The position numbers and the translations under genes are program-made. The notes under the pieces were generated by a model. It saw nothing but the letters and a program-made list of their open reading frames with translations, did not search any database and was not told the DNA's origin. DNA of 64,000 bases from an archaeon GW2011_AR15 (GTDB lineage Archaea > Nanobdellota > Nanobdellia > Woesearchaeales > GW2011-AR15): assembly GCA_000830295.1 (NCBI GenBank), contig CP010425.1, positions 64,001 to 128,000 of the forward strand, read 5' to 3'. Below, in pieces: positions 23,552 to 47,169 of this stretch. The number at the start of each line of letters is the position of its first letter. Positions within the stretch are counted from its first letter, which is position 1.

Positions 23552-23563
23552 TTGAAAAATAGA

Positions 23564-24772: not shown

Positions 24773-24805
24773 AGTAAATAAAAAACATTGGGGGTGCAAA
24801 AAAAA

Positions 24806-25210
24806 ATGGTAAACTGGTTATCTGTACTAGGAACTGCATTAGCAGGCTTTTTGCTGGGATGGATTTGGTATGGCCCGTTGTTCGGAAAACAGTGGATGAA
24901 GCTGATGAAAATATCCAAGAAAGACATGCAAAAAGCAAAGAAGAAAAGCATGGTTACACCGATGGTCGGCGGGTTCCTTGCTACGGTTGTTATGGCTTAT
25001 GTGCTTGATACATTCGTTAGACTTGTGGCTGCCACAACTTTTGTTGAGGGAGCAATCCTCGGATTCTGGCTGTGGCTGGGGTTCGTGGCAACTGTTCTCC
25101 TGGGAAAAGTCCTGTGGGAGAACAAATCATTCAGCCTCTACCTTATTGACTCGCTGCATTATCTTGCTGTGCTTGGGTTGATGGGCGGTCTATTGGCTGT
25201 CTGGATATAA
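24806..25210 (+). CDS. DUF1761-like membrane protein
   Basis: GWIWYGPLFGKQWM and GFWLWLGF patterns. Confidence 0.8.
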   Translation: MVNWLSVLGTALAGFLLGWIWYGPLFGKQWMKLMKISKKDMQKAKKKSMVTPMVGGFLATVVMAYVLDTFVRLVAATTFVEGAILGFWLWLGFVATVLLGKVLWENKSFSLYLIDSLHYLAVLGLMGGLLAVWI

Positions 25211-25277
25211 TTCTTTTTTTATTTTTTATTAGTTAACTTTAAATATAGTTTAATTACTGGGTTGCTGGGGAAAACTT

Positions 25278-26132
25278 ATGGCAGAAAACAGGGTTGTTGT
25301 TATCGGCGGTTCCGGTGTGCATGACAGCCCCGGCTTCAAAGAGGCTGTATGGGAAACACTGGATTTGGGAACACCTTATGGCAGGATAGAATATCAGGAA
25401 AGAGAAGATGGTGTAGTCTTTATACCAAGGCATGGCCATAATGTGAAATATGCCCCCCATCTTACGCAGTATATTGAAAACAGCCTGGCAGCAGCCCATC
25501 TTGGTGATGTCGTTATAGCCACCAGCGCAGTAGGGACATACCATCCTGAAAAAATCAAAGTCAAAGGCCTGGTTATTCCTGATGACTATATAGACATGAC
25601 AACAGGAAGGAAATCTGACCCTTATGGCGAGGGAATTACGGTCCATGCAAACCCAAGGCCTGCATTTACTGAAGAAGTCAGGAAAATTCTTCTTGAGAGC
25701 GGGAAGAAGCATTCGCATGCTTTTAATGGAGTTACAGATGGCGGCACATACCTGACTATGGACGGATCGAGGTTCGGCACAAGAGCTGAAGGGAACATGA
25801 GGGCATATTATGCTGACCTTGCGGGAATGACCTGCAATCCTGAAGCTGAGATAATGATGTATCTTGATATGCCTTATGCACTTGCTGCATTTGTTGTTGA
25901 TGAGGATGTTGACGCTGACCACGAACTGTCAACAATGGCTGTTATGAAAGAGCTTTCACAGCCTGATAAAGTCCCTGCTTTCATAGAGACTGCAATTGAG
26001 CTTGCAAAAGAAATGAAACTGCCTGAACGTGACCCGAGAATTGCAACAGGAATAATAGAACAGGGTCTGGAAAGGATCGCCAATAAATACGCAAGACAAA
26101 GAGCAGGATATCTTATGCAGAAATACAAGTAA
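25278..26132 (+). CDS. MTAP/PNP-family nucleoside phosphorylase
   Basis: IGGSG, TPYG, PRHG, SAVG, GMT motifs. Confidence 0.88.
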   Translation: MAENRVVVIGGSGVHDSPGFKEAVWETLDLGTPYGRIEYQEREDGVVFIPRHGHNVKYAPHLTQYIENSLAAAHLGDVVIATSAVGTYHPEKIKVKGLVIPDDYIDMTTGRKSDPYGEGITVHANPRPAFTEEVRKILLESGKKHSHAFNGVTDGGTYLTMDGSRFGTRAEGNMRAYYADLAGMTCNPEAEIMMYLDMPYALAAFVVDEDVDADHELSTMAVMKELSQPDKVPAFIETAIELAKEMKLPERDPRIATGIIEQGLERIANKYARQRAGYLMQKYK

Positions 26133-26876
26133 TTATTTCATGAAATTCCACTCTCTTGTGGAATATTTTTCTTCTACCAGCTGCCTTGCCCGCTTAATCT
26201 CCTCTTCAGCAAGCTCCCCGAAGCTGAATTCCTTCCCTTCTGTAAATCCCTTGAGCAGGGCATTATATGTATCTTCCCTCGTAACTTTTTTGTAATCTAT
26301 CACTCTTGTAACCCTTTCTTCAACAGACTTTATTATTTTATCGCGGATTTTCTCATCAGGAATTTTGAGAACAGTGAACATCCTCTTCACATCAACATCA
26401 TATAATATTGTGCCGTGCTGCAGCAATACGTTATTCCTCCTTGTCTGCGCATTGCCTGATATCTTCTTATTTCCGACAACAATATCATTTATAGGCACAA
26501 ACTGCGCATCAATCCCTATATTTTTCAGCCCTTTGACCACCCAGCCGCATATTTCTTTATAGCTCTCGATTATATTTTTCGGGAACATTCCAACCGGACC
26601 AATTACGGAATAAGTTATCTCTCCGTCATGGGAATGATAGACTGCCCCGCCGCCTGTCCTTCTTCTCACTATGCTGATGCCAAGCTTCCTGCATTTTCTC
26701 GCGTCAACAACATCATCCATGCTCTGGAAATATCCTATGGAAACCGCACTCGGAAGCCATCTGTAGAATCTTATTGTCGGCTCTCCCCCTTCTGCAACTG
26801 ATTCAGAGACTGCCTCATCTATCGCCATATTCATGAAAGCATGGTCCATTTCCAGGGGTATGACTCTCCACTTCAT
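26133..26876 (-). CDS. lplA: Lipoate-protein ligase catalytic domain
   Basis: NMAIDE, RRRTGGGAVYH, KKISGNAQ, QHGT. Confidence 0.92.
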   Translation of the reverse strand: MKWRVIPLEMDHAFMNMAIDEAVSESVAEGGEPTIRFYRWLPSAVSIGYFQSMDDVVDARKCRKLGISIVRRRTGGGAVYHSHDGEITYSVIGPVGMFPKNIIESYKEICGWVVKGLKNIGIDAQFVPINDIVVGNKKISGNAQTRRNNVLLQHGTILYDVDVKRMFTVLKIPDEKIRDKIIKSVEERVTRVIDYKKVTREDTYNALLKGFTEGKEFSFGELAEEEIKRARQLVEEKYSTREWNFMK

Positions 26877-27341: not shown

Positions 27342-29450
27342 ATGAAAAAAATATTGTTTGTAGTGTTAGCTTTGATAATGATTGTTTCTGCAGCGGCTGT
27401 TCAGGATAATATTGAGAGAAAGGACGGCGGGATAAAGACTGAGAACAAGGATTTTGTCCTTGACTGGGACTTGGAAGTTACAGGCTACAGCCCGCACTCA
27501 GGGAAATTCATACTTGAAGGGACTGCGCTGAGAAGCAAGGAAACAGATAGGAAAGCAGATATTGCAATAATCAGTCCCGTCCCTCTGGTGTCGATGAGCA
27601 GCGCTGTTGTATGGGAAGATATTGAAGAAGTTTTAACTGAGGAGAAAATTTATCCCTGTGACGGTCAATACGGCTGGAATAATGAAGAACACACCCAGAT
27701 TTATTGTGCAAGAACATACACAAGGTTAAATAATCAGACCGAGCAAATAGAGAACTATACTTCAACTTCAGTCATTGATGTTAACTCCGGAATATCTGTT
27801 ACTGATTTGGGGGATTCAATTGCATGGAACAACACAAAAACAGTAAAAAGGATATCTGAGAATGTAATATCATCAAAAATATCTTCCATTGAACATAAGA
27901 CAGATTATGGAAATTACGTCTACTATGTAAAAAACAATACTTTCAAAGCAGATGAAGATTACAGGTTCAGGTTTGAGATTGATGTAGCTAAAGAGATGCT
28001 TCCTGTAAAATATACTGTTTGTATAGGTGATGCAGAAGCCAACATATATTATTTCTGCCTAGACCCTACAATTGTCGATGCAAGGACATGGACAACTGAT
28101 GCTGACTTCACGAACGGAACAACACTTCTTAATTTGACTGCGGAGAATGATGATTTAAGGTTGGATATTGACAATGATGCTGCCTATTCAGATAGTCTAA
28201 TTCATTATTATTCGTTTGATTCTAATGCCAGTGATAGTGTTGGCAGTCTTGACGGAAGCGTGGATGGAGCAACCAGCACTACAGCCAAGAACAATAATGG
28301 GTACTCCTTTGATGGAACTAATGATAGAATAACTTATGATGGTGGCAGTAGATTTTATGATGATTCTGGCGATTTTTCAGTTTCTTATTGGGTATACATA
28401 GATTCTGATGGAACAGGAGTCCAAAAGCACATTTCAGCTCTTCAATGTGACTCTAATGCGGGAATGGCATATTACTATACTCATACAGGAGACATATATC
28501 ACGTTCAGATGAATAATGTAGGAGACATTTTAAGTGATAGTGCATTAACAGAGGATGCATGGACACATATTGTCTTTACAAGGAATGTCTCAGGGACAAT
28601 CCAGAACGCACTATACATAAATGGGGTATCTCAAACTTTAAGTGCTTCAGAACAAACCTACGACCCGATTTCCGGTGGTAGTTCATATACTAATGTTATA
28701 GGTGCACAACAGAGTGATTGCTTTTCATATGTTCAGTTTACAAAAGGGGATATTGACGAAATTGCTTTCTGGAACAGGTCTTTGACAGAAGAAGAGGTAG
28801 TATCTCTCAATAATTCCCATTTCTACTCTCCAGGGAGTTCAGAAACATTCTCACAGGGATTATACAGCGATGTTCAAGGTTGGTATCCTCAGAATGGATC
28901 AAAGCTAACAAGTGTTGATGTGCAAACTGTGCTCGCTGTTGATAGCTCTATCTTATTTAAATATAACAGCACTAATGCTTCACTGGACAGTTCTGAGTGG
29001 ATAAATCTTACTACTAATGGAACTAACATAATCAGTTTAGATCTGTCTAATGACCAGCCAATCTACTATCAGTTCAAGCTAATAGGGCCTGTTTCAACAC
29101 CAAGTGTAACTTCATATACTCTTCAGGAGACGATATATTCTGAGTCAGGAGCCAACAATTTTATTGATTTGGGTATACAACAGAGCTCAGCATGGCCTGA
29201 AGCGAATGTGTATAATGGCCAACAAGTTTACCTGAGAAACCTCAATAATGACCAAATATTAGCAACCGTAGACAGAGTTGTGGTGTATGGGAATAAAAGA
29301 TGGATTATCAACTATGCACTACCAAATGAATCTCTTGTGGGTTTGACTTTCAACATAACTCCGGTTGTTTATGTTCTTGATATGGCAAACCTGTCTTCGA
29401 CAGAGCTAACCACAACAGTAAAAAATCTCATAGACGCAACCATTAACTAA
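27342..29450 (+). CDS. Secreted LamG/concanavalin-like domain protein
   Basis: Signal peptide; HYYSFD, FDGTNDRI, WTHIVFT, LYING, GDIDEIAFWNRSL. Confidence 0.85.
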   Translation: MKKILFVVLALIMIVSAAAVQDNIERKDGGIKTENKDFVLDWDLEVTGYSPHSGKFILEGTALRSKETDRKADIAIISPVPLVSMSSAVVWEDIEEVLTEEKIYPCDGQYGWNNEEHTQIYCARTYTRLNNQTEQIENYTSTSVIDVNSGISVTDLGDSIAWNNTKTVKRISENVISSKISSIEHKTDYGNYVYYVKNNTFKADEDYRFRFEIDVAKEMLPVKYTVCIGDAEANIYYFCLDPTIVDARTWTTDADFTNGTTLLNLTAENDDLRLDIDNDAAYSDSLIHYYSFDSNASDSVGSLDGSVDGATSTTAKNNNGYSFDGTNDRITYDGGSRFYDDSGDFSVSYWVYIDSDGTGVQKHISALQCDSNAGMAYYYTHTGDIYHVQMNNVGDILSDSALTEDAWTHIVFTRNVSGTIQNALYINGVSQTLSASEQTYDPISGGSSYTNVIGAQQSDCFSYVQFTKGDIDEIAFWNRSLTEEEVVSLNNSHFYSPGSSETFSQGLYSDVQGWYPQNGSKLTSVDVQTVLAVDSSILFKYNSTNASLDSSEWINLTTNGTNIISLDLSNDQPIYYQFKLIGPVSTPSVTSYTLQETIYSESGANNFIDLGIQQSSAWPEANVYNGQQVYLRNLNNDQILATVDRVVVYGNKRWIINYALPNESLVGLTFNITPVVYVLDMANLSSTELTTTVKNLIDATIN

Positions 29451-29460
29451 AGGAGGAAAC

Positions 29461-32400
29461 ATGAAGAAAACTAGTTTCCTCCTGCTTTTTGTATTTTTAT
29501 TAGTGATTAGTGTGAGCTATGCGGCTGATACGTACAAGCCTTACATACACAAAGCCAATCTTCCTGAACACCCTAAAATAATCCTGTACGGCCAGTACAG
29601 GACCAGCCTGTTTCCTGGGGCAGCCACTTATTCTTACGGCATTGAAGTTCCTAGAGGAACAAACGGGCTGCAGCCTCTGGTTTTTGCCAGCTACAACAGC
29701 CAGTCTGCATCACAAAGGCCCGGGATACTTGGAAGCGGCTGGGCAGAAAGCAGCATATGGACGATTCCTGAGGATTTCATAAACAGCTCAGGAGACACAG
29801 GCATCAGGGTTATAGATATTAATGGAGATGGTCTGCCTGATATCCTGCAGGGCGCAGCCAGTACTAAAAAAGCATGGCTCAACAATGCAAGCGGCTGGGA
29901 AAATTATGATGCAGTGTGGCAGCCGCCGACCTCTTTTATAGACGGAAACGGGAAAGACGAGGGAACAAGGTTTATAGATGCCAATCTTGACGGGCTGGTT
30001 GATATCATAAAGCAGGATGATTCAGCATGGCTCAACAATGGCTCAGGCTGGCAGGCTACTGATGGCTGGAAATCGCCTGCAGATTTCATTGTCAGTAATG
30101 AAAACCTTGGCAGGAGCATCGCAGATGTCAACGGAGACGGGTTTGCCGATATAATCATTTCAACTTCAGGAGGGAATACAACATGGATTAAGAATTCAAC
30201 ATATCCTCAAATGCTGAAAAACATAGAGAATGAATATGGCGGGATTACAAATATAAGCTATGCCAGCTCAACACAGTTCAATAATTCAGAAAATGTGACT
30301 TCCCAGCTTGGCTTTAATATTTATGTTGTTTCCAATGTAACAACAGCAAACGGGCTTTCGGATGATTTTAACTTTGCTACTTCAACATCTTATAATTATT
30401 CTCTTGGAAAATACAATTACGGAAACTCTGAGTTCAGGGGTTTCGGAGTTTCTAAAGAGATAATGCCGTCAAAGATTGTCAGCCATTATTTCCATCAAGA
30501 TAATCCTAGAAGGAGCAAGGAGTTTAAGACTCAGATATATGATACGAATTTAAGCATCTTTTCAAAAAGCGAGAAAGAATATGCGGTTGTGTTTTCTGAT
30601 GGTGTTTATAATATAAGTCTTGATTCTTCTGCTGAATATCTCTATGATGGTTCTAATTCTCCTGTAATTACAAATAAAAGCTATACCTATGACTGGTACG
30701 GCAACCTGCTTTATTTAGAAGATCAAGGAGATGTTTCTGTTGCCGAAGATGAGAGATATTTCAACTATAGCTATGGTTTTGACAAGCAAAACTGGATAAT
30801 GGATAGGGCTGCGAGAGAAACTATCTATGATGATGAATTAGAGAAAGTAAGCGAGACAAAATACTATTATGATAATTTGGGCCTGGAAGGAGTGAGCGGC
30901 TATGGCAGACTGACTAAAACAGAAAGATGGGATTCAGGCGGAGATAATGTGTTTACTTACTTTAGTTATGATGGTTTTGGGAATGTGATTAAGAAAACAG
31001 ATAGTTTAGGGAACAGCTATAAGTTTTCGTACGACAGCACGCACACCTATCCTGTTACAGAGATAAATCCCCTGGGGCATATTACCACAAGGGTTTTTGA
31101 TTTACGGACAGGGAATGTTTTGTCTTTCACACAGAATGATATTACCGCAAGCTTTGTTTATGATGCTCATGGAAGAATAGCTAAAGAGGTCATGCCTTTT
31201 GACACGAATTTCTCTCCGACAAAAGAGTATGAGTATAGCTTTGATGGGGCGGCTCCTGAGAAGGTAAAGGTTAGTATGAAAACAACAGCTAACAGGACAG
31301 ACCGCATGTCCTATTTCTATGACGGGTTTGCCAATCTTATTCAGGTCAAGTCAGAGGTTGAAGATGGCCGGGAGATTGTCAAGAATATCTTCTATGATTC
31401 TGAATACAGGGTTGAGAGTGAGCAGAACCTTTATTTTGCTGATTATTCTTTAGAGCTAAGTCCTGCGGACAATGAAAGCAATTATGTTTTCTATAACTAT
31501 GATGCTTTAGATAGAGTTGTTTCTGTAACTAATCCTGACGGGACTTCTAAGACTGTCAGCTTTGAAAAGTACAATATAAGCTCTTATGATGAAAACGGGA
31601 ACAGGCATGATTACCTATTGGATGCGTTCGGCAGGATTGCTGAGGTCCACGAGTATAACACAAATGATGTCGGCCTGCAGAAAGTCTATAACACAACCTA
31701 TGAATATGACTCCAATGACAATCTGGTTAGAATTACAGATGAGGAAGGCAATGAGTTTTTGTTCTTCTATGATTCGCTGTCGAGGAAAACAGCAATGGAT
31801 GACCCTGATCTGGGCAGCTGGAGTTATGGCTATGACAAGAATTCAAACCTGATCAGCCAGACAGATGCAAAGAATAATACTATCAGACTTGGCTATGATG
31901 CCCTGAACAGGGTAACAGAAAAAAACAGCTCAGACGTTAACATTACTTTCAGCTATGACGGGGCTTACTCCGGTGTGCTGACAAATATGAGTATGAATGA
32001 TATCAATTTCAGCTTTGAATATGATGATAGGTTAAGACTTATAGAGATGATCATGCTGGCAGATGACCAGTCTTTTACAACTGAATTTATCTATGATTCC
32101 CAAAACAGGCTTATCTCAAAAGTTGGATTAGGAGAACTGGATTTTATATTCAACAGGCAAGGCAAAGTAAGGAAAATCCCGGGATTTGTTACAGATTCTT
32201 CTTATAATGCCTTTGGCAGTATTTTGAATAGAACTTATGGCAATGGCCTGATACAGCAGTTCAGTTATGATGAGGAGAATAACAGGCTTACAAACATCTA
32301 TATTTCAGGAGTCCAGAACTTGACTTATGATTATGATTCTGTAGAAAACATTATCTCCATACTTGACCCTGTGAATAATAGAAACCACTATCTTGGCTAT

Positions 32401-33927
32401 GATGGATTAAACAGGCTGATCAATGCCACAATAGGAGATGATGTCTACAAGTATTCTTACAACCCCTTAGGAAACATGATGAAGATAGTGCATAACAACG
32501 AAAGCAAGAAATTCGTTTACAATGGCGATCAGGCTCACGCCCCATCCCAGATAATCGAAGGGGAAGCTGGAGTGGACGTCTATAACCCAAGGGAGATAGA
32601 CACAGGCAGGAAATCCCGATTAACTGAATTCTGGTTATTGAATGACAAAAACACAAGCATTCTGGCCAACATATCTGTCTGGTTTGATGATAATAAGAAT
32701 TTCACGAATAATTCCATTACTCTCGACAGCAACATTTGGTTCCTTGTTGAGAACAACTACAGCTATGGCAGGGATTACAGCGTCAATATAACAGCAGATT
32801 CAGAGAACATATCAGACAGCCAGCTATACAGTATAAAATTCGGCACACGGGCAAAATCCCTTAAGGTTATAGATCCAAATGTCTCAGTCAAGACATTTGA
32901 GTTCATTATCGAGAATGATGTCTCTGATAAGGTCTATAACGTAAGCTGGAACTGCTCTAATGACATAGACACGATATATTCGACTGATTTGGCAGGAAAT
33001 CAAAGCCTGTATGACTATCTCCAGCACAATTACACTCTGCCTGGAGAAAAGACATTTACATGCACAGTCACAAGCAATGACGGGACAGAATCAGAGACAG
33101 TAGAATTTACTTTAAACGGCCTGGAGATAGAAGATTATGACATCCTGCTGACAAACATAAGCAGGAGAGTTGTTGCCTATGATGTTGTGAACTATTTCAC
33201 GCCGATAGAGGCCAATATTTCAATGGAGGACGAGACTGCCTCATTCTCCAGGATAACAACTCTTGAATCAGACGAGGATGTGATGGTTTTCGTCGAGACA
33301 AACTATTCCTCAGACGGCTCAAAGACATTCAGCATTGATGTCTCGTCAAGCAATTATTCTAATTCGTACAGCGAATCATTTGATTTAGAGAGTGTCTCAA
33401 TAGAGAATTATGAGAGGGTAAATCAAAATACCGGTCAGATATTAGTGTTCGGCATCAGGAACAAATGGTATTCTGGGGTGGTAAACTGGTCAGTGTCAGA
33501 GCCCAGCATACAGAACCTTAGCACTTTGAACACAGGCGAATTATTATTGGTTGCAATTGAGCATAATTATACTCAGGGCAGCAAAACACCGAGAATAACT
33601 GCTGTTGTGTCTTCTGTTCAGGACGAGGTAACAGATTATTTCTCTGTTACTCCTCTTGAAATCAGCAGTTTAGCAGTGATATCAGAAGACCGTTCCAAAG
33701 CAGTTTCCGAGCTGGTTGTGCTTAATAAGCTGGATGACAGCCAGCAGTTTTCATGGAGACTGGATACGGAGATAGAGAACATAACCTCCTCCTTAATCAA
33801 TCTCACTGGCAATGTTTTCATCTATATTGGCAGCTATTACAACACAGAAGGCATCTACAGGCAGGTTGCAGTGATAAACAGCAGCAGCTACGATGACAAT
33901 GAGAGCATCGGGGTGGTTATCTCGTGA
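29461..33927 (+). CDS. Secreted Rhs/TcB-like shell protein (SpvB-like start, FG-GAP repeats, YD repeats, beta-rich C-terminal repeats), no toxin tip
   Basis: GAATYSYGIEVPRGTNGLQP, DINGDG repeats, EFRGFG, many YD repeats, DPDLG; no terminal DPxG motif. Confidence 0.88.
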   Translation: MKKTSFLLLFVFLLVISVSYAADTYKPYIHKANLPEHPKIILYGQYRTSLFPGAATYSYGIEVPRGTNGLQPLVFASYNSQSASQRPGILGSGWAESSIWTIPEDFINSSGDTGIRVIDINGDGLPDILQGAASTKKAWLNNASGWENYDAVWQPPTSFIDGNGKDEGTRFIDANLDGLVDIIKQDDSAWLNNGSGWQATDGWKSPADFIVSNENLGRSIADVNGDGFADIIISTSGGNTTWIKNSTYPQMLKNIENEYGGITNISYASSTQFNNSENVTSQLGFNIYVVSNVTTANGLSDDFNFATSTSYNYSLGKYNYGNSEFRGFGVSKEIMPSKIVSHYFHQDNPRRSKEFKTQIYDTNLSIFSKSEKEYAVVFSDGVYNISLDSSAEYLYDGSNSPVITNKSYTYDWYGNLLYLEDQGDVSVAEDERYFNYSYGFDKQNWIMDRAARETIYDDELEKVSETKYYYDNLGLEGVSGYGRLTKTERWDSGGDNVFTYFSYDGFGNVIKKTDSLGNSYKFSYDSTHTYPVTEINPLGHITTRVFDLRTGNVLSFTQNDITASFVYDAHGRIAKEVMPFDTNFSPTKEYEYSFDGAAPEKVKVSMKTTANRTDRMSYFYDGFANLIQVKSEVEDGREIVKNIFYDSEYRVESEQNLYFADYSLELSPADNESNYVFYNYDALDRVVSVTNPDGTSKTVSFEKYNISSYDENGNRHDYLLDAFGRIAEVHEYNTNDVGLQKVYNTTYEYDSNDNLVRITDEEGNEFLFFYDSLSRKTAMDDPDLGSWSYGYDKNSNLISQTDAKNNTIRLGYDALNRVTEKNSSDVNITFSYDGAYSGVLTNMSMNDINFSFEYDDRLRLIEMIMLADDQSFTTEFIYDSQNRLISKVGLGELDFIFNRQGKVRKIPGFVTDSSYNAFGSILNRTYGNGLIQQFSYDEENNRLTNIYISGVQNLTYDYDSVENIISILDPVNNRNHYLGYDGLNRLINATIGDDVYKYSYNPLGNMMKIVHNNESKKFVYNGDQAHAPSQIIEGEAGVDVYNPREIDTGRKSRLTEFWLLNDKNTSILANISVWFDDNKNFTNNSITLDSNIWFLVENNYSYGRDYSVNITADSENISDSQLYSIKFGTRAKSLKVIDPNVSVKTFEFIIENDVSDKVYNVSWNCSNDIDTIYSTDLAGNQSLYDYLQHNYTLPGEKTFTCTVTSNDGTESETVEFTLNGLEIEDYDILLTNISRRVVAYDVVNYFTPIEANISMEDETASFSRITTLESDEDVMVFVETNYSSDGSKTFSIDVSSSNYSNSYSESFDLESVSIENYERVNQNTGQILVFGIRNKWYSGVVNWSVSEPSIQNLSTLNTGELLLVAIEHNYTQGSKTPRITAVVSSVQDEVTDYFSVTPLEISSLAVISEDRSKAVSELVVLNKLDDSQQFSWRLDTEIENITSSLINLTGNVFIYIGSYYNTEGIYRQVAVINSSSYDDNESIGVVIS

Positions 33928-35216
33928 GAACCGCCAGATATATAAAGAGAATTGCCCTGTTCTTCATCATGCTTATTGCTCTTCAATCTGTTGTTTTTGC
34001 TGGAACATTAAATTTAGAATATGACGCTAATGGCAATTTAGTTAGCGGAGACGGCCTTTTCAGGGAGTATAACTCACTGAACCAGTTATGGAGAGTGTAT
34101 AATGGCTCAAATTCCTCTGGTGATTTATTGCAGGAATACACATATCATCCTACAGAAGAGAGAGCCCTTATAAAGAAAACATACAATAATTCTGTTCTGG
34201 TTGAGAGAGCCTATTACGTTGATGAAAACTTTGTCAGGATCATAAATCTATCTGGAACTTTCGATTTTACGTATGTGTATCATAACGGACAACAGATAGC
34301 ACAGATACTGCCTTCAGGAGATAAAGAATTCATCCACGCAGACCATATCGGCTCTTCCAGTGTTGTAACTAATGAAGCCGGTCAAGTTATTGAGAATACT
34401 ACGTATGCTCCTTTTGGCTCAATTGTCTCAGGAGGAGAAGAGACGAGATATGATTACGAGAATAAGGAATATGATGAAACAATAGGCACTTACGACTTCC
34501 ATTTCAGGCAGTACAACCCAGAGTTCGGGATATTCATGCAGCCGGACACGCTCATACAGAATGTCTATGACCCGCAGTCTCTAAATAGATATGCGTTTGA
34601 GAGGAATAATCCGTATAACAGGGTTGATCCGACAGGTCATTTTGAACTAGTTTCTGGTACTGTTTTTGTTGGGGCTCTTGCAGTAGCATCTATAGCAGCA
34701 TTCATTGCATGGTCGAGTCCCATTATTGGACCTAGTATTGATTGGTATAAGTCATCAAGACAGGTTCTTCAAGCAAAAGCCACGGAGAATAAAGCTAAAT
34801 CTCTTTATGATTTGGGAGAAAAATGGTATCAATACTATGAGGATGATACTCCAGAAAACTTTAAGAAAGCACTTCTAGAAACAGCTGGTTTTGCTGTAGA
34901 TGAGATAATTAGTAGTGGATTACAAAGAACAGCAGGTAAAGTCTTTTCAGATTATTACGAGGCTAATCAAGGCATGGGAGGGATAACAATAAATGTTTTA
35001 AATAATATACTTGATTGGAATAATCAAGCCAATGAAATAATTGGTATCTCATCATCAGAAAAAGGTTCAAAAGCATTACTTCGCTCAAGAAGAAGTGGAG
35101 GATATAGTCTAGTAGAAAGTAATGCCAATGGAGAAACGAATACTTATACAGGTAATATCTATGACATTAATGGTGAAAAAAGATTTATTGGAATAAGACC
35201 AGTCAGTAGAGACTGA
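33924..35216 (+). CDS. Rhs core protein with signal peptide and hydrophobic toxin tip
   Basis: HADHIGS, YAPFG, QPD...PQSLNRYAFERNNPYNRVDPTG; GTG start overlaps the upstream TGA. Confidence 0.88.
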   Translation: MRTARYIKRIALFFIMLIALQSVVFAGTLNLEYDANGNLVSGDGLFREYNSLNQLWRVYNGSNSSGDLLQEYTYHPTEERALIKKTYNNSVLVERAYYVDENFVRIINLSGTFDFTYVYHNGQQIAQILPSGDKEFIHADHIGSSSVVTNEAGQVIENTTYAPFGSIVSGGEETRYDYENKEYDETIGTYDFHFRQYNPEFGIFMQPDTLIQNVYDPQSLNRYAFERNNPYNRVDPTGHFELVSGTVFVGALAVASIAAFIAWSSPIIGPSIDWYKSSRQVLQAKATENKAKSLYDLGEKWYQYYEDDTPENFKKALLETAGFAVDEIISSGLQRTAGKVFSDYYEANQGMGGITINVLNNILDWNNQANEIIGISSSEKGSKALLRSRRSGGYSLVESNANGETNTYTGNIYDINGEKRFIGIRPVSRD

Positions 35217-35254
35217 GACACATATTTAAATAGAAAAACATCCTAATAGCATAA

Positions 35255-35704
35255 ATGGTATTTTTTATCCAACAAAACATTGAAGCCATACTGCTTTATG
35301 TAGGTCTTTTCTCACTGCAAATTAGTTTTTTAATAACAAGTATTCTTGGTTGGAAAGTATATAAAAACAAAACTAAACTAGTACACAAAAAGAAACTAAA
35401 TCACGATGTTGCTGAGGATAATTTTCTTCTAGTTTTCTATATTTTAACAATATTACTGCCAATATTTTTTACTTATGTAATTTTTTCTCAAAATACCTAT
35501 TTAGGTTTCATTAATGTGTTCATATTATTCATATACTCAGTTGGAGTACATAGATTATCGATTTCAGAATTTGAAAAAATAATTTATTCAAGAAGACTAA
35601 TAAACCCAAAATTTAAAAAAAATATTTATAATTTAATTTTTAGACCATACATATATTTCGGCATAGCATTTTTTTGTTTAATAATAAACCTAATAATTAG
35701 ATAA
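35255..35704 (+). CDS. Putative membrane immunity protein
   Basis: Very AT-rich, about 4 TM segments, directly after a toxin tip. Confidence 0.6.
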   Translation: MVFFIQQNIEAILLYVGLFSLQISFLITSILGWKVYKNKTKLVHKKKLNHDVAEDNFLLVFYILTILLPIFFTYVIFSQNTYLGFINVFILFIYSVGVHRLSISEFEKIIYSRRLINPKFKKNIYNLIFRPYIYFGIAFFCLIINLIIR

Positions 35705-35705
35705 A

Positions 35706-36155
35706 ATGACAAACACAAAAACATTGAAAGTGTTTTATTTAGGGTTAACATTAATTGTATTTATCATTCTAACTATCTCTTTAATAATTAATATTAGTAT
35801 CCCCTTTATTGGGTGGGTTTTTGGATTGTCTGGTATAGGACTCTCAATCTTCCTATTTTTTTATATTGATTCAACTAAGAAAATCAACAAGGACACAAAT
35901 CAAATTTTTCATATTCTAGAAGAAAATAGATTATTTAAGATTAACTTTATACAATTGTCAATAATATATTTGATTCTAGTCTTTATATATACTCAATTTA
36001 GATATTCTATAGTCAAAGAGGCGTATTTTTCAGACACACTACCAATTTCTATATCTGTTATCTGCGTTTATTTTGTTTTGTTAACTATTCAATATCATAA
36101 AGGCTTGTTAATTTTATTAAGAAAAGATCTGAAGAGTTTCAAGAAGATAAAATAA
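35706..36155 (+). CDS. Putative membrane immunity protein
   Basis: Very AT-rich, about 4 TM segments, tandem with the previous gene. Confidence 0.6.
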   Translation: MTNTKTLKVFYLGLTLIVFIILTISLIINISIPFIGWVFGLSGIGLSIFLFFYIDSTKKINKDTNQIFHILEENRLFKINFIQLSIIYLILVFIYTQFRYSIVKEAYFSDTLPISISVICVYFVLLTIQYHKGLLILLRKDLKSFKKIK

Positions 36156-36160
36156 ATACC

Positions 36161-37894
36161 AATTCATCATACAATGCTTTCGGCAGCATTCTCAATAGGA
36201 GCTATGGCAATGGCCTGATACAGCAGTTCAGTTATGATGAGGAGAATAACAGGCTTACAAACATCCATATTTCAGGAGTCCAGAACTTGAGCTATTCATA
36301 TGATTCTGTAGGAAACATTATCTCCATACTTGATCCTGTGAATAATAGAAACCACTATCTTGGCTATGACAGCTTGAACAGGCTTGTAAATGCCACAATA
36401 GGAGGTGATGTCTACAAGTATTCTTACAGCCCCTTAGGAAACATGATGAAGATAGTGCATAACAATGAAAGTAAGAAATTCGTTTACAATGGCGATCAGG
36501 CTCACGCTCCGTCTTCAATTATTGAAGGAGACGCAGGCATTGACGTTTTCAGCCCGAGAGAGATTGATACTAACAGGAAATCCAGATTGACTGAGTTTTG
36601 GCTGCTTAATGACAGGAACACGAGCATTGTAACTAACTTTACTGTTGGCTTTTGAGACGGGAATTCCTTCAGCAATGATTCTGTTTCAGTAGAGAACAAC
36701 ATCTGGTTCCTTGTTGAGAACAATTATTCCAACGGAGGCAATTATTCTGTAAATGTGAGTGCTGTTTCCTTAGGCATCTCAGACAGTGAGGTTTATGATA
36801 ACAGATTTGGAGCAAGGGCTAACAACCTGAAAACTATTTATTCAAATAGCTCATTGAGAACATTTGAGTTCATTATTGAGAATGATGTCTCTGACACCAT
36901 ATACAATGTTACGTGGAACTGCTCAGACGGCCTTGACTCAATATACTCGACTGATTTGGAAGGAAATCAAAGCCTGTATGACTATCTTCAGCATAATTAC
37001 AGCAGCCCAGGCCAGAAGACCTTTGGCTGCACAGTTGTTAGCAATGACGGTGCTGAAAGCAAAGCAATAGTGTTTACTCTCAATGGATTAGAAATAGAGA
37101 ATTTTGACATTTTGTCTAATAATGCTTCATGGAGAGTCGTCAGCTATGATGTAAGGAATTATTTCATACCAATGGAAACAAATATCTCCATGGATGACGG
37201 CGCAGCTGAATATTCCAGAGTAACAACTTTAGCTTCCAATGAGAACATATTCGTGTTTGCAGAGCAGAATTTCAGTTCTGACGGCTCAAAGACATTCACG
37301 ATTTCACTGAATTCAGAGAATTATACCAATGATTATGCAGAAGCCTTTAGTTTAGAAGGAGTCTCAATAGAGAATTACAACAGGCATTCATCAGGGACTG
37401 ACCAAATCTTTTCTTTCGACGTGAGAAACAACTGGAACCCTTCAGTAGTTGTGTGGAACATCAGCGGAGTTCTAAGCAATTCCTCCTCTCTTGACAATGA
37501 TGAGCTTTTGATGGTAATCGTTGAGAACAATTATACAGTGCAGGGCAAAAAACAAGCAATAATTACAGCCAGAAGCTCATCATATGAAGACACAATAACG
37601 GATTATTTCCTAATTCAACCTTTATTAATACAATCTCTAATCACATTGTCAGAGGATGATTCAGAGGCAGTCTCAGAATTAATAGTAGAGAATACGATAA
37701 ACAACACGCAACAGTTTTCATGGAGACTGGATACACAAGAGGAGAATATAACCTCCAACTTAATCAATGTAAGCGACAACATCTTTGTTTATATAGGCAG
37801 CGAGTACAATGATGAAGGTGTCTATAATATCCGGCTGAATATCAATAATACGAATTATAACGACAGCGAGAAAAGAGGAGTGGTGATATCGTGA
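36161..37894 (+). pseudogene. 5'-truncated paralog of the shell-gene 3' part with an in-frame TGA at 36653-36655
   Basis: Starts mid-domain (NSSYNAFGSILNR), homologous to about 32195-33927; ORFs 36287-36655 and 36755-37894 are in the same frame; both copies end GVVIS. Confidence 0.85.
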
Positions 37895-39231
37895 AAAAAG
37901 CCACCTATCTAAAAATCATCGCCGGATTATTGCTCTATTTGGTAGTTTCGCTCCCTGCCGTATTCTCAGCTGAACTCAGTCTAACTTACGATGCTAATGG
38001 CAACCTTGTAACAGGAGACGGCAAGTATAGAGAATACAATTCATTGAACCAGCTCTGGAAGATTTACAACGGCTCAAATTCTTCTGGTGATTTATTGCAG
38101 GAATACGAGTATCATCCGATAGAGGAGAGAATGCATGTAAAAGTTTCTTATAATGGGGATGGGAGCAACGAAACCACGATTTATATCTCTGAAAACTTTG
38201 TCAGGGTAATCAACAGCTCAGGTACTTTTGACTTTACTTATGTTTATCATAACGGACAACAGATAGCTCAGGTAAAGCCTTCAGGAGATAAAGAGTTCAT
38301 ACATAACGATCATTTAGGCTCAACATCAATTATAACAAATGAAAGTGGAGCAATTATTGAAAATACGACATATAGTCCTTACGGTGAAATTATTGCAGGA
38401 GGACAAGAATCTAGAAAAGATTATACAGGAAAAGAATTTGATTTAGGTCTAGAGGAGTATGATTTTGGCGCAAGAATGTATAAAGCAGAGTGGGGGTTAT
38501 TCACCAAAGCAGATAGTATAATCCCTGATCCATTTGAACCTCAAGCTTTCAATCGTTATTCTTATGCAAAGAATAATCCATTTAGATATATTGACCCAGA
38601 TGGTTTTGCATACTGTGATGCTGTTCAAGGGTGTGTACAATTAGTGGATGTTTCAGGTGGAGTACATACTTCTGGTCCTTTGACGTTAGAAGAAGGAGAA
38701 CTTGGAGAATATTCTGAATATAATGGTTATGAATATAATCCACCATGGTCCGTAGATAAAGCACCAGAAGGAAAAAATCAATTTTGGAACCAGTTAGTAG
38801 GAGATTTGTTTACTGCTATTGGTTTTAGTCTTTCAACTTCACCATTTAGTTTTACTGGTAGAACTTCAATAGCCCCACCAAAACCTGGCGATGATGTCTT
38901 AAGTGAAGCATCTAAAAAGGGATTCTCATCTGATGAACTGCTACAAAAGCATTTTGCAAAGCACAAAGATGAATTTGGATTTAAAACAGTTAAACAATAT
39001 GATAATGCCGCAAAAAGCTTTGCTAGCTCAAATAATGCAGATATACAACAATATATAAGACCAAATGGGGATGTTTTAAGATATAATCCTGCGTCAAATG
39101 AGTTCCTAGTTGCTTCTAGTAAAGGGACAATAAGGACATATTTTAAACCAAGAGCAGGATATAGCTACTACTATCAACAGACAATTAGTGGAGAAGAATT
39201 TATTATTGGAATACGAAAACCTAAAAAATAA
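37891..39231 (+). CDS. Rhs core protein with signal peptide and putative RNase (BECR/colicin D-like) tip
   Basis: HNDHLGS, NNPFRYIDPDG, then LQKHFAKHKDEFG...NGDVLRYNPASNEF...GTIRTYFKP. Confidence 0.88.
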   Translation: MKKATYLKIIAGLLLYLVVSLPAVFSAELSLTYDANGNLVTGDGKYREYNSLNQLWKIYNGSNSSGDLLQEYEYHPIEERMHVKVSYNGDGSNETTIYISENFVRVINSSGTFDFTYVYHNGQQIAQVKPSGDKEFIHNDHLGSTSIITNESGAIIENTTYSPYGEIIAGGQESRKDYTGKEFDLGLEEYDFGARMYKAEWGLFTKADSIIPDPFEPQAFNRYSYAKNNPFRYIDPDGFAYCDAVQGCVQLVDVSGGVHTSGPLTLEEGELGEYSEYNGYEYNPPWSVDKAPEGKNQFWNQLVGDLFTAIGFSLSTSPFSFTGRTSIAPPKPGDDVLSEASKKGFSSDELLQKHFAKHKDEFGFKTVKQYDNAAKSFASSNNADIQQYIRPNGDVLRYNPASNEFLVASSKGTIRTYFKPRAGYSYYYQQTISGEEFIIGIRKPKK

Positions 39232-39256
39232 GCGAATCTTCCAAATAGTCATTAAA

Positions 39257-39658
39257 ATGGTAATTGATAAAGAAAAAAGTCATTTTAAAGCACCCACCAC
39301 GAAGATTGATAAACTAATTAAAGAATGGAGGGAGTTTGTTAATTCTTGTAAAGCAGGCTATGAACTTTCTTTTTATGATTATAAGAATGATTTGGATATT
39401 AGGCTTCTTATTCAAAAGATAATAGACTCAAATACTAAAAAAAGTGAAAAAATAAGAAGACAAATCCAATTTGAGGATACGGAATTTAGGGAGTTATTAG
39501 TTAATATTAACGCTTGCATATATCCTAAAAATACGGAAACACAATTTGATGAATCTAAAAGGGACAAGTATTTTTGGTATTGGGGAATTATCAAAAATGC
39601 ACGTGGGGAATTATTGAAAGATTTAGAATCAGAAAAAAGATTTGAGTATTATTCTTAA
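39257..39658 (+). CDS. Putative soluble immunity protein
   Basis: Directly after the nuclease-like tip; WREFV...GY...DYKNDLDIR; AT-rich. Confidence 0.7.
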   Translation: MVIDKEKSHFKAPTTKIDKLIKEWREFVNSCKAGYELSFYDYKNDLDIRLLIQKIIDSNTKKSEKIRRQIQFEDTEFRELLVNINACIYPKNTETQFDESKRDKYFWYWGIIKNARGELLKDLESEKRFEYYS

Positions 39659-39683
39659 ATTAATATACTGATCCAGCCAAGAA

Positions 39684-40634
39684 ACTTTTGACTTTACTTA
39701 TGTAAAACACGAAGGGCAGCTGATAGCGCAAGTCAACCCGGATGGCAGCAAATACTTTATCCATTCTGACCATTTAGGCTCAACATCTGTAGTTACCGAT
39801 GAAGCAGCTGCTGTCATTGAAAACACGACTTACAGCCCATTCGGAGAGATTGTAGCAGGCGGTTCTGCTGTCAGGTATGGCTATGAAGGCAAGGAGTATG
39901 ATAGTGTTGTTGGGGATACGGATTTTAACTTCAGAAAGTATAATCCAAGCTGGGGAATATTTTTACAACCAGATACAATAATCCAAAACTTATACGATCC
40001 GCAGTCGTTGAATAGGTATATGTTTGAGAGGGGGAATCCTTATTATTATATTGATCCGACAGGACAGAACCCCGTTGCTATTGCTGCTGGAATATACATA
40101 GGAATTATGGCATTATCTGGAGGGGGACAAGAATTGGCAGTTCAATTAATTTATTCAGGAAGAGTATACGACTGGAGCAGGATAGGATATGCTACATTAG
40201 AAGGTACAACTATAGGAGCTATAGCTATTGCTACATTGTTTATTCCCTCTATTGGTCCACATATATTTTCAGCAATAACATTTGGGTATGAATGGGAAGG
40301 ATATAAAGAGTTAGAAGAATCTATTGGCACAGCAAAAGAAAATAGATTAGAAGATGATGAAAGTACACTCACCTCTAAAGTGACTATACCAAACATGCAA
40401 AGTCAAGCCAATAATCAACATATAGTAACTCCTCCTTCAACACAAACTGCAATAGAAAATATAATATGGTTTGTTTCAAAAACGGCAAGAAGATATCTTG
40501 GTGGAAGTACATATACAATATCAGGGAGAGAATATGGACTAAGTGTTTATCAACCTGCCAGAGACGCAGAAGGCAAAACAAGATGGGATAGAATTATAGA
40601 AAGGAATAAAGAGAGAAGTCAAAAAAATACATAA
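39684..40634 (+). pseudogene. Orphan Rhs core/toxin cassette without start or signal peptide
   Basis: Frame reads TFDFTYVKHEGQLIAQV...HSDHLGS...NPYYYIDPTG then a Gly/Ala-rich hydrophobic tip; in-frame TGA at 39669 upstream. Confidence 0.85.
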
Positions 40635-40668
40635 ATTTTTATAGTATGAGCTATGTTAATATGATATA

Positions 40669-40893
40669 ATGAGTAAGAAAATTGCGTCCAGATTTGGAAC
40701 ATATTTATCATTGAATTTGATTGTTTTTAGTGTCTTATATACTTGGGGGATTATTACATTAAAAAATATCATTACTGATATGTTTGTGCCATTGATTGTA
40801 TTTTATCGTAGTTTAATAGTCACAATTGGATTAAATTTAGCAGCGTTTATATACATTAAAATTAATAAAATTGAGTTAGATAAATTTCTTTAA
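40669..40893 (+). CDS. Putative small membrane immunity protein
   Basis: 74 aa, 2 TM segments, AT-rich, after the orphan tip. Confidence 0.6.
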   Translation: MSKKIASRFGTYLSLNLIVFSVLYTWGIITLKNIITDMFVPLIVFYRSLIVTIGLNLAAFIYIKINKIELDKFL

Positions 40894-41011
40894 ATCATTT
40901 TCAATTACTTTTTGATCCAGCCATTGCTTATACAATCGCTTGTAACGCTCTCAGAAGTTTGACAGCACCGCAAACAAAAACCTTAAAAAACAATTCTGTT
41001 TTCATGCCCAG

Positions 41012-41260: not shown

Positions 41261-41314
41261 TTCATTCTGAGAATAGCTTTATAAATAAGCTCTTTACACT
41301 ACCACTTGATAGTA

Positions 41315-43336
41315 ATGGCATTGAAGACAAAGTTTGAGGCACGCCTTGACAGGCACGCATTCGATCAGCCTGATGTAGAAGATTTTGAGCAGCTTGAAGA
41401 TTCCGGCCTTGCGCCATTGATTATTTCTTTGTACAGGAGCATAGAGCAGGGAAAGGGGCTCCAGAGGACATTCAGGGAAAGCCTGGGCAAGCACGGGATT
41501 ATATATGCTGTTGAAGAGCAGCTCCGCGTCCTGCCTTACAAGCTGACCGGCTTTATGAACTCTATACTCCCGGGGATAGAAGAATCAGATATCTCTCCTG
41601 ACAAACTGATAAAAAGGCCTGTAATCAGGGATGGAAAGCTTGATGCAGAATACAGCGACCCAGGGTCATTTGCAAGGTTAGTGTCATTGCTTCCCGGCTA
41701 TACTGTGCAGAATACCCCTCTCTGGACAAAAAATAATCTCGGGCAGGCAAGAGAAAGAAATGTAATGAAGATATATGCCGAGACAATGGAGCTCGCAGAA
41801 AGAGTTTCCCAAATTGGCGACGGGGCAGACAGGGACAGCATTGTATCAAAAATACAGTCTGCAGCAAAAGGATTCCTGAACAGGACTGCCAACTATCACG
41901 CCATAAATGATATGTTCGGGGAAGTGCTGGAATCTGTGAAGGGGAAAATAGACCAGAGAGAGCTTGAGCTGATATACAGGCTTCATGAGCTGCAGTCAGG
42001 AGACAAGGCACTGAAGCACAAGTTTACGAGGAAATTCATAGAGCCTTATGAGAAAAAAATCAAAAGCGCAGAAAACAAGGAAGATGTTTTCAGGCAGACT
42101 GTTTCAGACAGGATATCATCTGCATTCCAGTGGGTAGCCTCAAGGCAGCCTCTTGTATATGCTTCTCTTGTTGGAGTTGCCCTGGCTTTGGGAGGAGGGC
42201 TGCTGGTAAAGAACGGGGTATATAATTATCTCCAGCATCAGGACAAGAACAGGGTCTCTGAAGTTGCAAGGGTGCTTCCGCCTGACTATGAGGGCCTCGG
42301 AGCAATAATACCTTTTACTGTGCATGCTGCCAACACCTCGCACTGGGCTGACCAGGCATATGTTGCGCAGTTTCCTGAGGAATCAGAAATAGATGTGCCA
42401 TTAAATGACGGACAGCTTTATGTCCTGCTGGATTCGCATATAGAAACAGGGCTAAGGGATTCTGGTGCCCTTTTGGAGCTTTACAGGGATAGCAGGCTGA
42501 TAAATGCACTTGATGCAATAAATAATGGCGGCGGCACGATAATCAATAGTTTCAGCCACTGGTATACTGAGTCAGGGCATATGAACTGCACCACACGCAC
42601 AGATTCTGACGGGAATACAACAGAAACATGCTACTATGTGTGCGATTCCCGTACACATTTCCAGTCAAAAGACCAGGGGCAGATAAACCAGGGCGTTGAA
42701 ATGGCAAGGCAGGGCCTTGCAACAGAAGTTTTCGGTGAACATTTTGGGGATATATTCTTTCCTGTTATTGATGTAAGCCAGTATGTGAATGCAGATACTA
42801 CTGCAGTGAGGGATTACCTTGCAGCAGCACAGGGACAGGCTCAGCTTCCTGCAACACTGGAAAGCAATGCATCAAGAATTGCACAGCTTCCTGACAGTGA
42901 TGTATTTTACGATTGGGGATGCTGGTATGGCTACGGCTATCCTCCTTACTGGGAACCAAGAAGCCTTGCCGGCCAGATTTACGGGCTTACAAATGACGTG
43001 CAGAACTTCAGCTCTGTCAGCTCTTATCTTGAAAAAGCAAACGAAGCGCTCCAGCAGGGAAGCGAGATAATGCATTCAAGCAGCGACGCCGAAACAATTT
43101 TCAAGGAGGAAATGGGGGATTTTAGCATATACTTGCACAAGGCTTTGGGAATTCCCGGAGCAGGCCACTTGTTCCAGGATGAGATAAAATTCATAAGCAA
43201 TCTGGCAGGAATAGGCATGGGCATAATTGGAATTGCTGCAGCATATGGGTTCTACAACAGCCTCATGAACGGGATGTTCGGAGTCGAGATGGGAAACATC
43301 AGAAGAAAATACGGCCTTTCCTCATATTCCTATTAA
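41315..43336 (+). CDS. Large hypothetical membrane protein
   Basis: Two TM segments flanking a domain containing CTTRTDSDGNTTETCYYVC. Confidence 0.7.
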   Translation: MALKTKFEARLDRHAFDQPDVEDFEQLEDSGLAPLIISLYRSIEQGKGLQRTFRESLGKHGIIYAVEEQLRVLPYKLTGFMNSILPGIEESDISPDKLIKRPVIRDGKLDAEYSDPGSFARLVSLLPGYTVQNTPLWTKNNLGQARERNVMKIYAETMELAERVSQIGDGADRDSIVSKIQSAAKGFLNRTANYHAINDMFGEVLESVKGKIDQRELELIYRLHELQSGDKALKHKFTRKFIEPYEKKIKSAENKEDVFRQTVSDRISSAFQWVASRQPLVYASLVGVALALGGGLLVKNGVYNYLQHQDKNRVSEVARVLPPDYEGLGAIIPFTVHAANTSHWADQAYVAQFPEESEIDVPLNDGQLYVLLDSHIETGLRDSGALLELYRDSRLINALDAINNGGGTIINSFSHWYTESGHMNCTTRTDSDGNTTETCYYVCDSRTHFQSKDQGQINQGVEMARQGLATEVFGEHFGDIFFPVIDVSQYVNADTTAVRDYLAAAQGQAQLPATLESNASRIAQLPDSDVFYDWGCWYGYGYPPYWEPRSLAGQIYGLTNDVQNFSSVSSYLEKANEALQQGSEIMHSSSDAETIFKEEMGDFSIYLHKALGIPGAGHLFQDEIKFISNLAGIGMGIIGIAAAYGFYNSLMNGMFGVEMGNIRRKYGLSSYSY

Positions 43337-47106: not shown

Positions 47107-47169
47107 TACATATTACGTCTAAAAATAAAAAGTTTATATATTCTATAAGGTATCCCGTCTTTGGGGGCT

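Follow-up and report, generated by a model that had tools for sequence, protein, structure and literature searches.

A Rhs/Tc-type polymorphic toxin locus of a DPANN archaeon in which shell and core-toxin are separate, overlapping genes

The prevailing view of Rhs and Tc cocoons is that co-folding of shell, plug and toxin encloses the toxin, whether these parts make up a single chain or come as a pair of chains co-expressed in the cytoplasm. How, then, is a locus to be read in which the shell stops short of the Rhs core, and in which core and toxin form a second gene that opens with a signal-peptide-like sequence of its own? We analyzed such a locus in a stretch of 64,000 nt from contig CP010425.1 of assembly GCA_000830295.1 (the window; coordinates below are positions in it unless a locus of another genome is named). 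The cluster occupies 27342-40925 on the + strand, with its open reading frames (ORFs) where a first-pass annotation had placed them. That annotation had labelled the host DPANN-like, and a DPANN archaeon (Woesearchaeota) is supported by the small genome (a single contig of 1,157,790 bp, completeness score 96.8%), by the introns in both tRNA genes at 11138-11241 (104 nt) and 47018-47106 (89 nt), and by the closest named homologues, which are called Candidatus Woesearchaeota, Nanoarchaeota or Nanoarchaeia. The cluster is a Rhs/Tc-type polymorphic toxin system: it has the YD-repeat shell array of Rhs proteins and a TIGR03696 core ending in DPxG before a variable C-terminal toxin. However, shell, core and toxin do not form the single polypeptide of Rhs proteins, there being a stop and restart at 33924-33927, and the system departs from Tc toxins in size and split point.

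The shell gene (29461-33927, + strand) encodes 1488 residues. Pfam scans of the protein found RHS_repeat (1.1e-35), TcdB_toxin_midN (8.8e-21) and three FG-GAP repeats; a YD_repeat_2x match scored 2.8e-20, and YD/RHS repeats extend to about residue 1010. Neither TIGR03696 nor a custom core hidden Markov model (HMM), built from 28 related cores, matches the shell, which is without a Rhs core. Its start is signal-peptide-like and is followed by the remnant of a SpvB start. The tail (residues 1011-1488) holds 24 N-x-S/T sequons versus 9.6 expected by composition and was modelled as all-beta, with a mean predicted local distance difference test (pLDDT) of 88.3 and about four immunoglobulin (Ig)-like beta-sandwich domains. 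Foldseek searches with this model returned strings of Ig, FN3 and macroglobulin (MG) domains at low TM-scores, as for beads on a string. The first-pass description of a YD shell that ends before the core, with a beta-rich and sequon-dense tail, is therefore borne out. Its placing of the shell on the cell surface is not, as no membrane anchor was seen in either the shell or the upstream LamG protein described below: the sole transmembrane (TM)-like segment of each is the N-terminal signal. The N-terminal architecture of the shell family matches the SpvB, FG-GAP and TcdB_toxin_midN order of TcB, with all three present in the relatives L045 and L039 and the last two in the window copy. On this architecture the family falls, among polymorphic toxins, into the class named 'TcdB/TcaC' by Zhang et al. 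2012 (PMC3482391).

Core and toxin are encoded by what we call cartridges. Cartridge 1 (33924-35216, + strand, 430 residues) follows the shell, and cartridge 2 (37891-39231, + strand, 446 residues) lies further downstream; both match TIGR03696 (4e-16 and 4.2e-16, residues 161-239) above the 32.5-bit cut-off. A genome-wide TIGR03696 search found these two cores and one further, fragmentary one (cartridge 3), and no others. The core ends in DPTGH in cartridge 1, DPDGF in cartridge 2 and DPTGQ in the cartridge 3 fragment. The N-termini of cartridges 1 and 2 begin with K/R residues, continue with an 11-residue hydrophobic window of 3.0-3.3 and end in VFA|G or VFS|A, making the first 26-28 residues signal-peptide-like. 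In cartridge 1 the signal peptide would occupy residues 1-26, the core module residues ~27-239 and toxin 1 residues 240-430. The predicted cleavage site falls 2-6 residues ahead of a conserved 'YDANGN' motif, and the protein left after cleavage would consist of that motif, ~130 residues of YD hairpins, an aspartyl-protease plug formed by the TIGR03696 domain with DPxG, and the toxin; in fused forms other domains precede the motif. Four positions in the catalytic region (R175, D188, D215 and G218 in alignment numbering) are invariant across 27 cores. The claim that core, DPxG motif and toxin form separate genes of 430 and 446 residues, each with a signal-peptide-like start and a GTGA overlap, thus holds.

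The start of each intact cartridge is a GTG within TCGTGA, overlapping the TGA stop of the preceding shell frame (33924-33927 and 37891-37894). This had been read as one split junction occurring in two diverged copies. The duplication itself stands, as 32195-33410 and 36162-37377 are 74.6% identical at the DNA level, 33742-34456 and 37709-38423 are 67.6% identical, and the core modules of cartridges 1 and 2 share 59% identity. However, DNA alignment and inspection of the frame show that the second shell copy (36158-37894, + strand) is a decayed duplicate of the ~580 last shell codons (shell residues ~912-1488). It begins directly after the stop of the preceding gene, lacks a start codon and is interrupted by an in-frame TGA at 36653-36655.

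The split is no artefact, because independent contigs agree and, as the stronger evidence, the junction is conserved between genomes. Contigs from the public metagenome runs X1, X2 and X6 span position 33924 without a single difference or gap (X1 and X2 possibly represent the source sample; run X9 has no coverage of 33773-33955). We examined 16 junctions in 14 genomes: the two in the window, one in a cassette of genome G241 and 13 at other loci. At 15 of these the cartridge start overlaps the shell TGA, as ATGA, GTGA or TTGA, and a signal-peptide-like sequence follows; the exception is L038, where the shell stops at TAA with an ATG close by. Frameshift artefact, which had already been argued against on the strength of the duplicated junction, can thus be set aside. 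A reading of TGA as a sense codon was considered separately and rejected at the junction: beyond the TGA the shell frame runs just six codons to a TAA, and the completeness score of the genome is 96.8%.

In 10 of the 15 overlapping junctions GGTG(A/G) or GGAGG lies within 12 nt upstream of the overlap. Such motifs resemble an archaeal ribosome-binding site, and we take them to match the anti-Shine-Dalgarno sequence. They sit in the last codons of the shell ('...GVVIS') as GGTGAT- or GGAGG-like motifs, at a distance of 5-10 nt from the cartridge start in the same proportion of junctions. The conserved C-terminal peptide of the shell may reflect this ribosome-binding site rather than a constraint on the protein.

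How widespread is the arrangement? We surveyed 401 genomes of the same phylum, of which 61 have a TIGR03696 core, most matches lying in open frames of about 350-530 residues, and 37 have a homologue of the shell YD region. These tallies take in one unpublished genome, G359, as one of the 61 core-bearing genomes and one of the 25 among them without a shell. The shell loci classified comprise 36 fetched at full length plus the window. Fourteen of these 37 shells are followed by a separate, overlapping cartridge gene, and in two others the cartridge lies 1.2-2.5 kb downstream. A core-bearing gene stands directly upstream on the same strand in 11/37, and shell and core are fused in 3/37 (the main gene of L039, L055 and L068). 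No core was found within the fetched DNA at seven loci; in five of these it lies just outside, upstream and on the same strand, and the other two are at contig ends. A survey of DPANN genomes for the same split had been suggested with the first-pass annotation, and the split was found: this architecture is common across the phylum.

The nearest shells (52-56% identical; G295, G281, G004, G310, G084 and G110) all share the Ig-like tail, and an overlapping cartridge is present wherever the contig continues, that is, in all but G110:C47. Gene boundaries shift between lineages. In G051, which is of the same genus, the shell ends 26 residues past the YD repeats, and the second gene (1039 residues) combines signal peptide, Laminin_G_3, core and toxin. 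In G241 (L039) the main gene is a canonical fused Rhs gene; its downstream cassette repeats the window arrangement exactly, with a YD fragment and the tail leading through an ATGA overlap into a cartridge of 432 residues. The L039 locus (G241:C1, 3833-13586) thereby holds a fused shell-core-toxin of 1570 residues and a split-form cassette side by side, and through recombination with the cassette the main gene could pass into the split form.

Beyond the phylum sample, protein databases yielded 350 proteins of 236-753 residues that match cartridge residues 1-245, and a core-module profile matched 15,883 cluster representatives at E <= 1e-30. Among the best 150 of these representatives, 131 do not exceed 517 residues and have the start of the module at residues 2-102; the remaining 19 span 633-6193 residues. 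A scan of 185,579 species genomes found 532 stretches that encode a relative. The titles of the best 80 of these 532 are mostly Woesearchaeota, Nanoarchaeota, Nanoarchaeia or Pacearchaeota, with many third-party annotation (TPA) records titled 'uncultured Methanosarcinales' and single records from Aenigmatarchaeota, Micrarchaeota, Bilamarchaeaceae, Gracilibacteria, Nitrospinota and an 'uncultured bacterium'. Among the 350 matching proteins, those that carry a name are mostly 'hypothetical protein' or a generic 'RHS repeat-associated'.

Do shell and cartridge act together? The conserved 4-nt overlap of the two genes, their co-occurrence and a complex model suggest that they do. Of the 37 shell-bearing genomes 36 also have a core, and the YD half of the core module (cartridge residues 28-135) is found in 33/36 core-bearing genomes with a shell versus 3/25 without one (Fisher p = 2e-10, a value that overstates the association, the genomes being kin). 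We also modelled shell residues 236-1015 together with core residues 27-242, in three runs and with three controls. The interface score ipSAE was 0.85, 0.85 and 0.84, versus 0.00 for the best control, with ~205 confident contacts, at least 98% agreement between runs, and a pLDDT of at least 88 for the partner and ~87 for the shell. The modelled interface joins the last third of the YD region (shell residues ~718-1009) to core residues ~34-163 and 201-232 and draws on both the YD hairpins and the plug of the cartridge. Of 80 solved complexes 58 reach the ipSAE mark used, and so do 2 of 110 mismatched pairs; these counts are a rough guide only, own alignments having been used. The docking may echo the likeness to solved Rhs and TcB-TcC structures and speaks for compatibility rather than binding. 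The modelling of shell plus core, which had been put forward as a check, thus gave a predicted interface, and co-occurrence agrees with it.

A third gene accompanies the shell. Immediately upstream, 27342-29450 (+ strand) encodes an apparently secreted accessory protein of 702 residues, the LamG protein, with a signal-peptide-like start, a Laminin_G_3 match at residues 324-486 (Pfam, 3.7e-18) and a conserved C-terminal alpha/beta domain of ~100 residues (601-702). In the window and at nine other loci (L039, L044-L051) a homologue of this C-terminal domain is encoded immediately before the shell, at a distance of -42 to +4 nt, and at one further locus it is encoded downstream of the shell. The gene, overlooked in the first reading, is therefore a conserved third component of the system. 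LamG domains recur in relatives, either in the upstream protein or fused ahead of the core, and we infer a binding role for them. In the AlphaFold2 (AF2) model of the upstream protein pLDDT is 83-95 over residues 601-702, the first 118 residues of that model being unreliable. The best fold match of residues 601-702 is to restriction-endonuclease-like alpha/beta domains (Z 7.4, root-mean-square deviation 3.1 over 92 residues), which is within the range of a common arrangement and names no fold. Against the ESM Atlas, all matches of this domain fell below the bars set for that search.

The three toxin regions are mutually unrelated and share no matches, and none has a Pfam match at E <= 1. Toxin homologues among the fetched proteins and loci were too few for useful alignments, and all matches of toxin 1 in the ESM Atlas were below the same bars. 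Toxins 1 and 3 open with a hydrophobic stretch after DPxG, as many relatives do; in toxin 1 it is a helix. Toxin 2 (cartridge 2 residues 353-430) matches PDB 8ey4_A, an 88-residue chain named 'PT-VENN domain-containing protein', at E 6e-11, and by this match resembles a CdiA C-terminal toxin domain. A literature search found no paper on PDB 8ey4. Toxin 2 had been called a nuclease-like tip; only its likeness to a CdiA C-terminal domain is shown, and a nuclease activity is putative.

Small genes of low guanine-plus-cytosine (GC) fraction (0.23-0.28 versus 0.424 for the window) follow each toxin. Two genes of 149 residues each (35255-35704 and 35706-36155, + strand; GC 0.23-0.25; four TM-like segments each) are candidate immunity genes for toxin 1. 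A soluble protein of up to 156 residues (39188-39658, + strand; start codon uncertain; GC 0.28; without TM-like segments), for which no family match above threshold was found, is the candidate for toxin 2. An ORF of 74 residues (40669-40893, + strand; GC 0.24; two TM-like segments) is the candidate for toxin 3; among the fetched loci it has no homologue outside loci L001-L003 of its own genome. GC fractions and TM-like segments thus agree with the earlier description of AT-rich genes behind each tip, of membrane type after the hydrophobic tips and soluble after toxin 2, and both layout and composition fit candidate cognate immunity proteins. For the first pair there is comparative support: at L120 (2-1500), in another genome, a sequence weakly related to toxin 1 (E 5e-05) stands before one weakly related to the second 149-residue gene (E 1.5e-05), and this recurrence of neighbours supports the two as a toxin-immunity pair.

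The third cartridge (39672-40634, + strand; TIGR03696 match at 39831-40067) is a silent orphan cassette. Its frame opens inside the core (custom HMM positions 83-218), without a signal peptide and without a start before the core. Of the three tips described earlier, two belong to the intact cartridges 1 and 2, but the third is a 5'-truncated core. The related idea of interchangeable plugs fits cartridge 2, which is intact and has a signal peptide, although it sits behind a decayed shell; cartridge 3 would need recombination. Exchange of cartridges may resemble that in ordinary Rhs orphan arrays.

We assign a probability of roughly 0.65 to the reading that the locus is a multi-cistron Rhs/Tc-like polymorphic toxin operon, whose two-chain cocoon is assembled outside the cell and served by an accessory LamG protein. 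Through the start/stop overlap, often accompanied by a putative ribosome-binding site, translation would be coupled, and the two chains would be synthesized and exported jointly. Once outside the membrane, the cartridge would prolong the spiral of the shell with its YD half and close the shell with its plug, the toxin being enclosed; cleavage by the core would fall after DPxG. Attachment to a target cell or to a glycan may come from the Ig-like tail and the LamG protein. Given their hydrophobic character and their membrane-protein immunity candidates, toxins 1 and 3 would have membranes as their target; toxin 2, CdiA-CT-like and paired with a soluble immunity candidate, would work in the cytoplasm. 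Recombination with downstream cassettes would bring in new toxins, and intact cartridges with a signal peptide, such as cartridge 2, might be expressed independently. We hold only tentatively, as somewhat short of an even chance, the more specific proposal that Woesearchaeota and related DPANN archaea put together a Rhs/Tc-like cocoon outside the cell from translationally coupled chains that are each exported by Sec (the accessory LamG protein, the shell and the cartridge), that toxins are exchanged by way of the small cartridge gene rather than the giant shell gene, and that a single shell type could take several cartridges, each expressed on its own. Compared with the first-pass picture of a surface shell loaded with interchangeable plugs, the split, the signal-peptide-like starts and the docking are retained, the surface location is not, and interchangeability holds in part only. 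That picture had passed over the TcB-like shell, the conserved LamG gene, an N-terminal loss of ~390 residues in the shell and the phylum-wide spread.

Several points weigh against extracellular assembly of a two-chain cocoon. The signal peptides were called by a hydrophobicity heuristic and not by SignalP. The complex model left out the N-terminus and tail of the shell and cannot place the toxin inside it. To our knowledge, there is no precedent for a closed cocoon formed from two chains after Sec export. Moreover, 25 of the 61 core-bearing genomes lack a detectable shell of the window type, and four of five core-rich genomes examined are entirely without YD repeats. In many cartridges of shell-less genomes the signal peptide is joined to no more of the core than its plug half, which means that at least those cannot rely on the modelled docking. 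Plug-toxin proteins therefore probably also work alone or with another carrier.

These shell-less genomes lend weight to the main alternative, which we nevertheless regard as unlikely: the cartridges would be autonomous, secreted, self-cleaving core-toxin proteins, the shell an independent secreted or adhesive protein, and the two neighbours by way of a recombination-prone conflict island. It would account for G306, G173, G027 and G230, with 7-13 cores each and no YD repeat, for the six tandem plug-half cartridges of G173:C35, for the downstream half-core cartridges of G364 with signal peptides of their own, and for the short length of most of the best-matching core-module representatives (131 of 150, as above). 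However, autonomous toxins would not explain why the 4-nt overlap with the shell is kept at 15 of 16 junctions or why all but one of the shell genomes have a core. The YD half, ~130 residues of hairpins that make little sense alone, tracks the shell (33/36 versus 3/25) and is docked onto it in the complex model, and fused shell-core-toxin genes occur in the same lineage (L039, L055, L068). The G173:C35 array (L035, 13494-20002) also has a feature of its own: its ORFs, of about 350-390 residues with plug half-cores and differing C-termini, stand back to back and leave no room for immunity genes between them.

A second alternative concerns this copy alone. Relative to six of six aligned relatives (L045, L046, L048, L051, L039 and L034) the window shell has an in-frame gap of ~390 residues after residue ~107, which takes out most of SpvB and several FG-GAP blades, that is, part of the beta-propeller. 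The window shell gave no SpvB match with Pfam; of three related shells put through the same scan, L045 and L039 did. In Tc toxins the SpvB/propeller region closes and gates the cocoon (PMC8636562), and a copy lacking ~390 N-terminal residues may be impaired or may work differently, a further point against the two-chain cocoon as far as this locus is concerned. The locus could then be a decaying remnant that no longer delivers toxins while the architecture is functional in relatives, and the orphan shell fragment, without a start and with an in-frame TGA, could be seen in the same light. We consider this improbable. Apart from the gap the 1488-residue shell frame is intact, as are both cartridges and all candidate immunity genes, and the junction and signal peptides are preserved. 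Start-less orphan fragments are normal in working Rhs loci (Zhang et al. 2012, PMC3482391).

The weakest alternative, that shell and core are truly one polypeptide through assembly error, programmed frameshifting or stop read-through, can appeal to the single chain of canonical Rhs proteins and to the 3/37 fused shells of relatives but is barely credible, given that independent contigs agree at a junction found in 14 genomes, the cartridge frame is open just 7-10 codons upstream of its start, TGA read-through runs into the TAA six codons on, no common slippery heptamer precedes the overlaps, and the conserved signal peptide right after the start fits a separate protein.

How does such an operon compare with known systems? 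WapA of Gram-positive bacteria is a single chain, unlike the split system described here. WapA-type toxins are Sec-dependent Rhs toxins and resemble it in the N-terminal signal peptide and in folding outside the cytoplasm. The system also resembles type VI secretion system (T6SS) Rhs effectors such as P. laumondii Rhs1, for which PMC8636562 gives a YD barrel, a C-terminal aspartyl-protease plug, an encapsulated toxin, cleavage at PxxxxDPxGL and toxin exchange by recombination. Unlike those effectors, it encodes plug and toxin in a separate gene, export is apparently by Sec, and the genome lacks PAAR, VgrG and sheath genes: PAAR_motif, Phage_GPD (VgrG) and VipB gave zero matches across the 1.16-Mb genome, whereas control genomes did match. 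The earlier observation that T6SS parts were absent from the window therefore extends to the whole genome. The accompanying statement on TcA is less secure, as the TcA families PF18276 and PF03538 have no match in the genome, yet no control genome matched either.

Among Tc toxins, TcB-TcC of Photorhabdus and Yersinia likewise divide a YD cocoon between two adjacent genes. As in the relatives of the window shell, the first carries SpvB, FG-GAP and TcdB_toxin_midN; the second is a Rhs core with a variable toxin; and with a third gene upstream the order is A-B-C-like. The split comes much later here, however, and the cartridge contributes a conserved part of ~210 residues versus ~650 in TcC, which makes up about a third of the shell. 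PMC7861908 gives 851-1050 residues for 97.2% of TcC proteins and 201-400 residues for their toxin region, compared with 430 and 446 residues for whole cartridges, and the earlier judgement that the split differs from that of TcB/TcC is sound. Further differences are that both chains have signal peptides here, that the shell has an Ig-like tail, that the upstream gene encodes a LamG or alpha/beta-domain protein of 410-700 residues instead of a 2500-residue TcA, and that immunity genes and orphan cassettes are present. The Yersinia entomophaga Tc complex is reported to be released by cell lysis (PMC10847048).

Single-chain 'TcdB/TcaC' toxins, which include one of Methanosarcina acetivorans, are described in PMC3482391 as having a signal peptide, SpvB, an integrin-like propeller and RHS repeats, with a length peak at ~2200 residues. 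They share with the present system the domain order, the core, the C-terminal toxin and the downstream cassettes with immunity genes. There, however, all parts form one chain. In the present system the chain breaks off ahead of the core, and what follows is a second protein with a signal peptide of its own. A literature search found no description of such a split; the archaeal survey of Makarova et al. 2019 (mBio) and its supplements lay outside the scope of that search.

Three other features of the window can be mentioned. A cluster for a 2-oxoacid dehydrogenase complex at 20655-26876 encodes E1 alpha, E1 beta and a lipoyl-domain E2, together with a lipoate-protein ligase and a radical SAM protein; for a genome of 1.16 Mb this amounts to a rather rich metabolic module. 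The toxin cluster is adjoined by an ORF of 676 residues (41306-43336) with no Pfam match at E <= 0.001. Further along, an ORF of 505 residues (47161-48678) has a C-terminal CAP (cysteine-rich secretory protein) domain, and its product may be secreted as well.

Contact between cells is essential to DPANN archaea, about whose conflict systems hardly anything is known. The locus described here provides a concrete and widespread candidate for how they fight or manipulate their neighbours. If the more specific proposal above is true, these ultra-small archaea would have in such cocoons a principal weapon against hosts or competitors, and Rhs encapsulation would need neither a single chain nor folding in the cytoplasm. 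A split that is conserved in many genomes, with plug and toxin as a gene of their own that carries a signal peptide, challenges current ideas of how cocoons are made. If the two proteins do assemble, the assumption that a toxin is enclosed by co-folding would have to be relaxed. The split also suggests a simple route by which a cocoon might be reloaded with new cargo.

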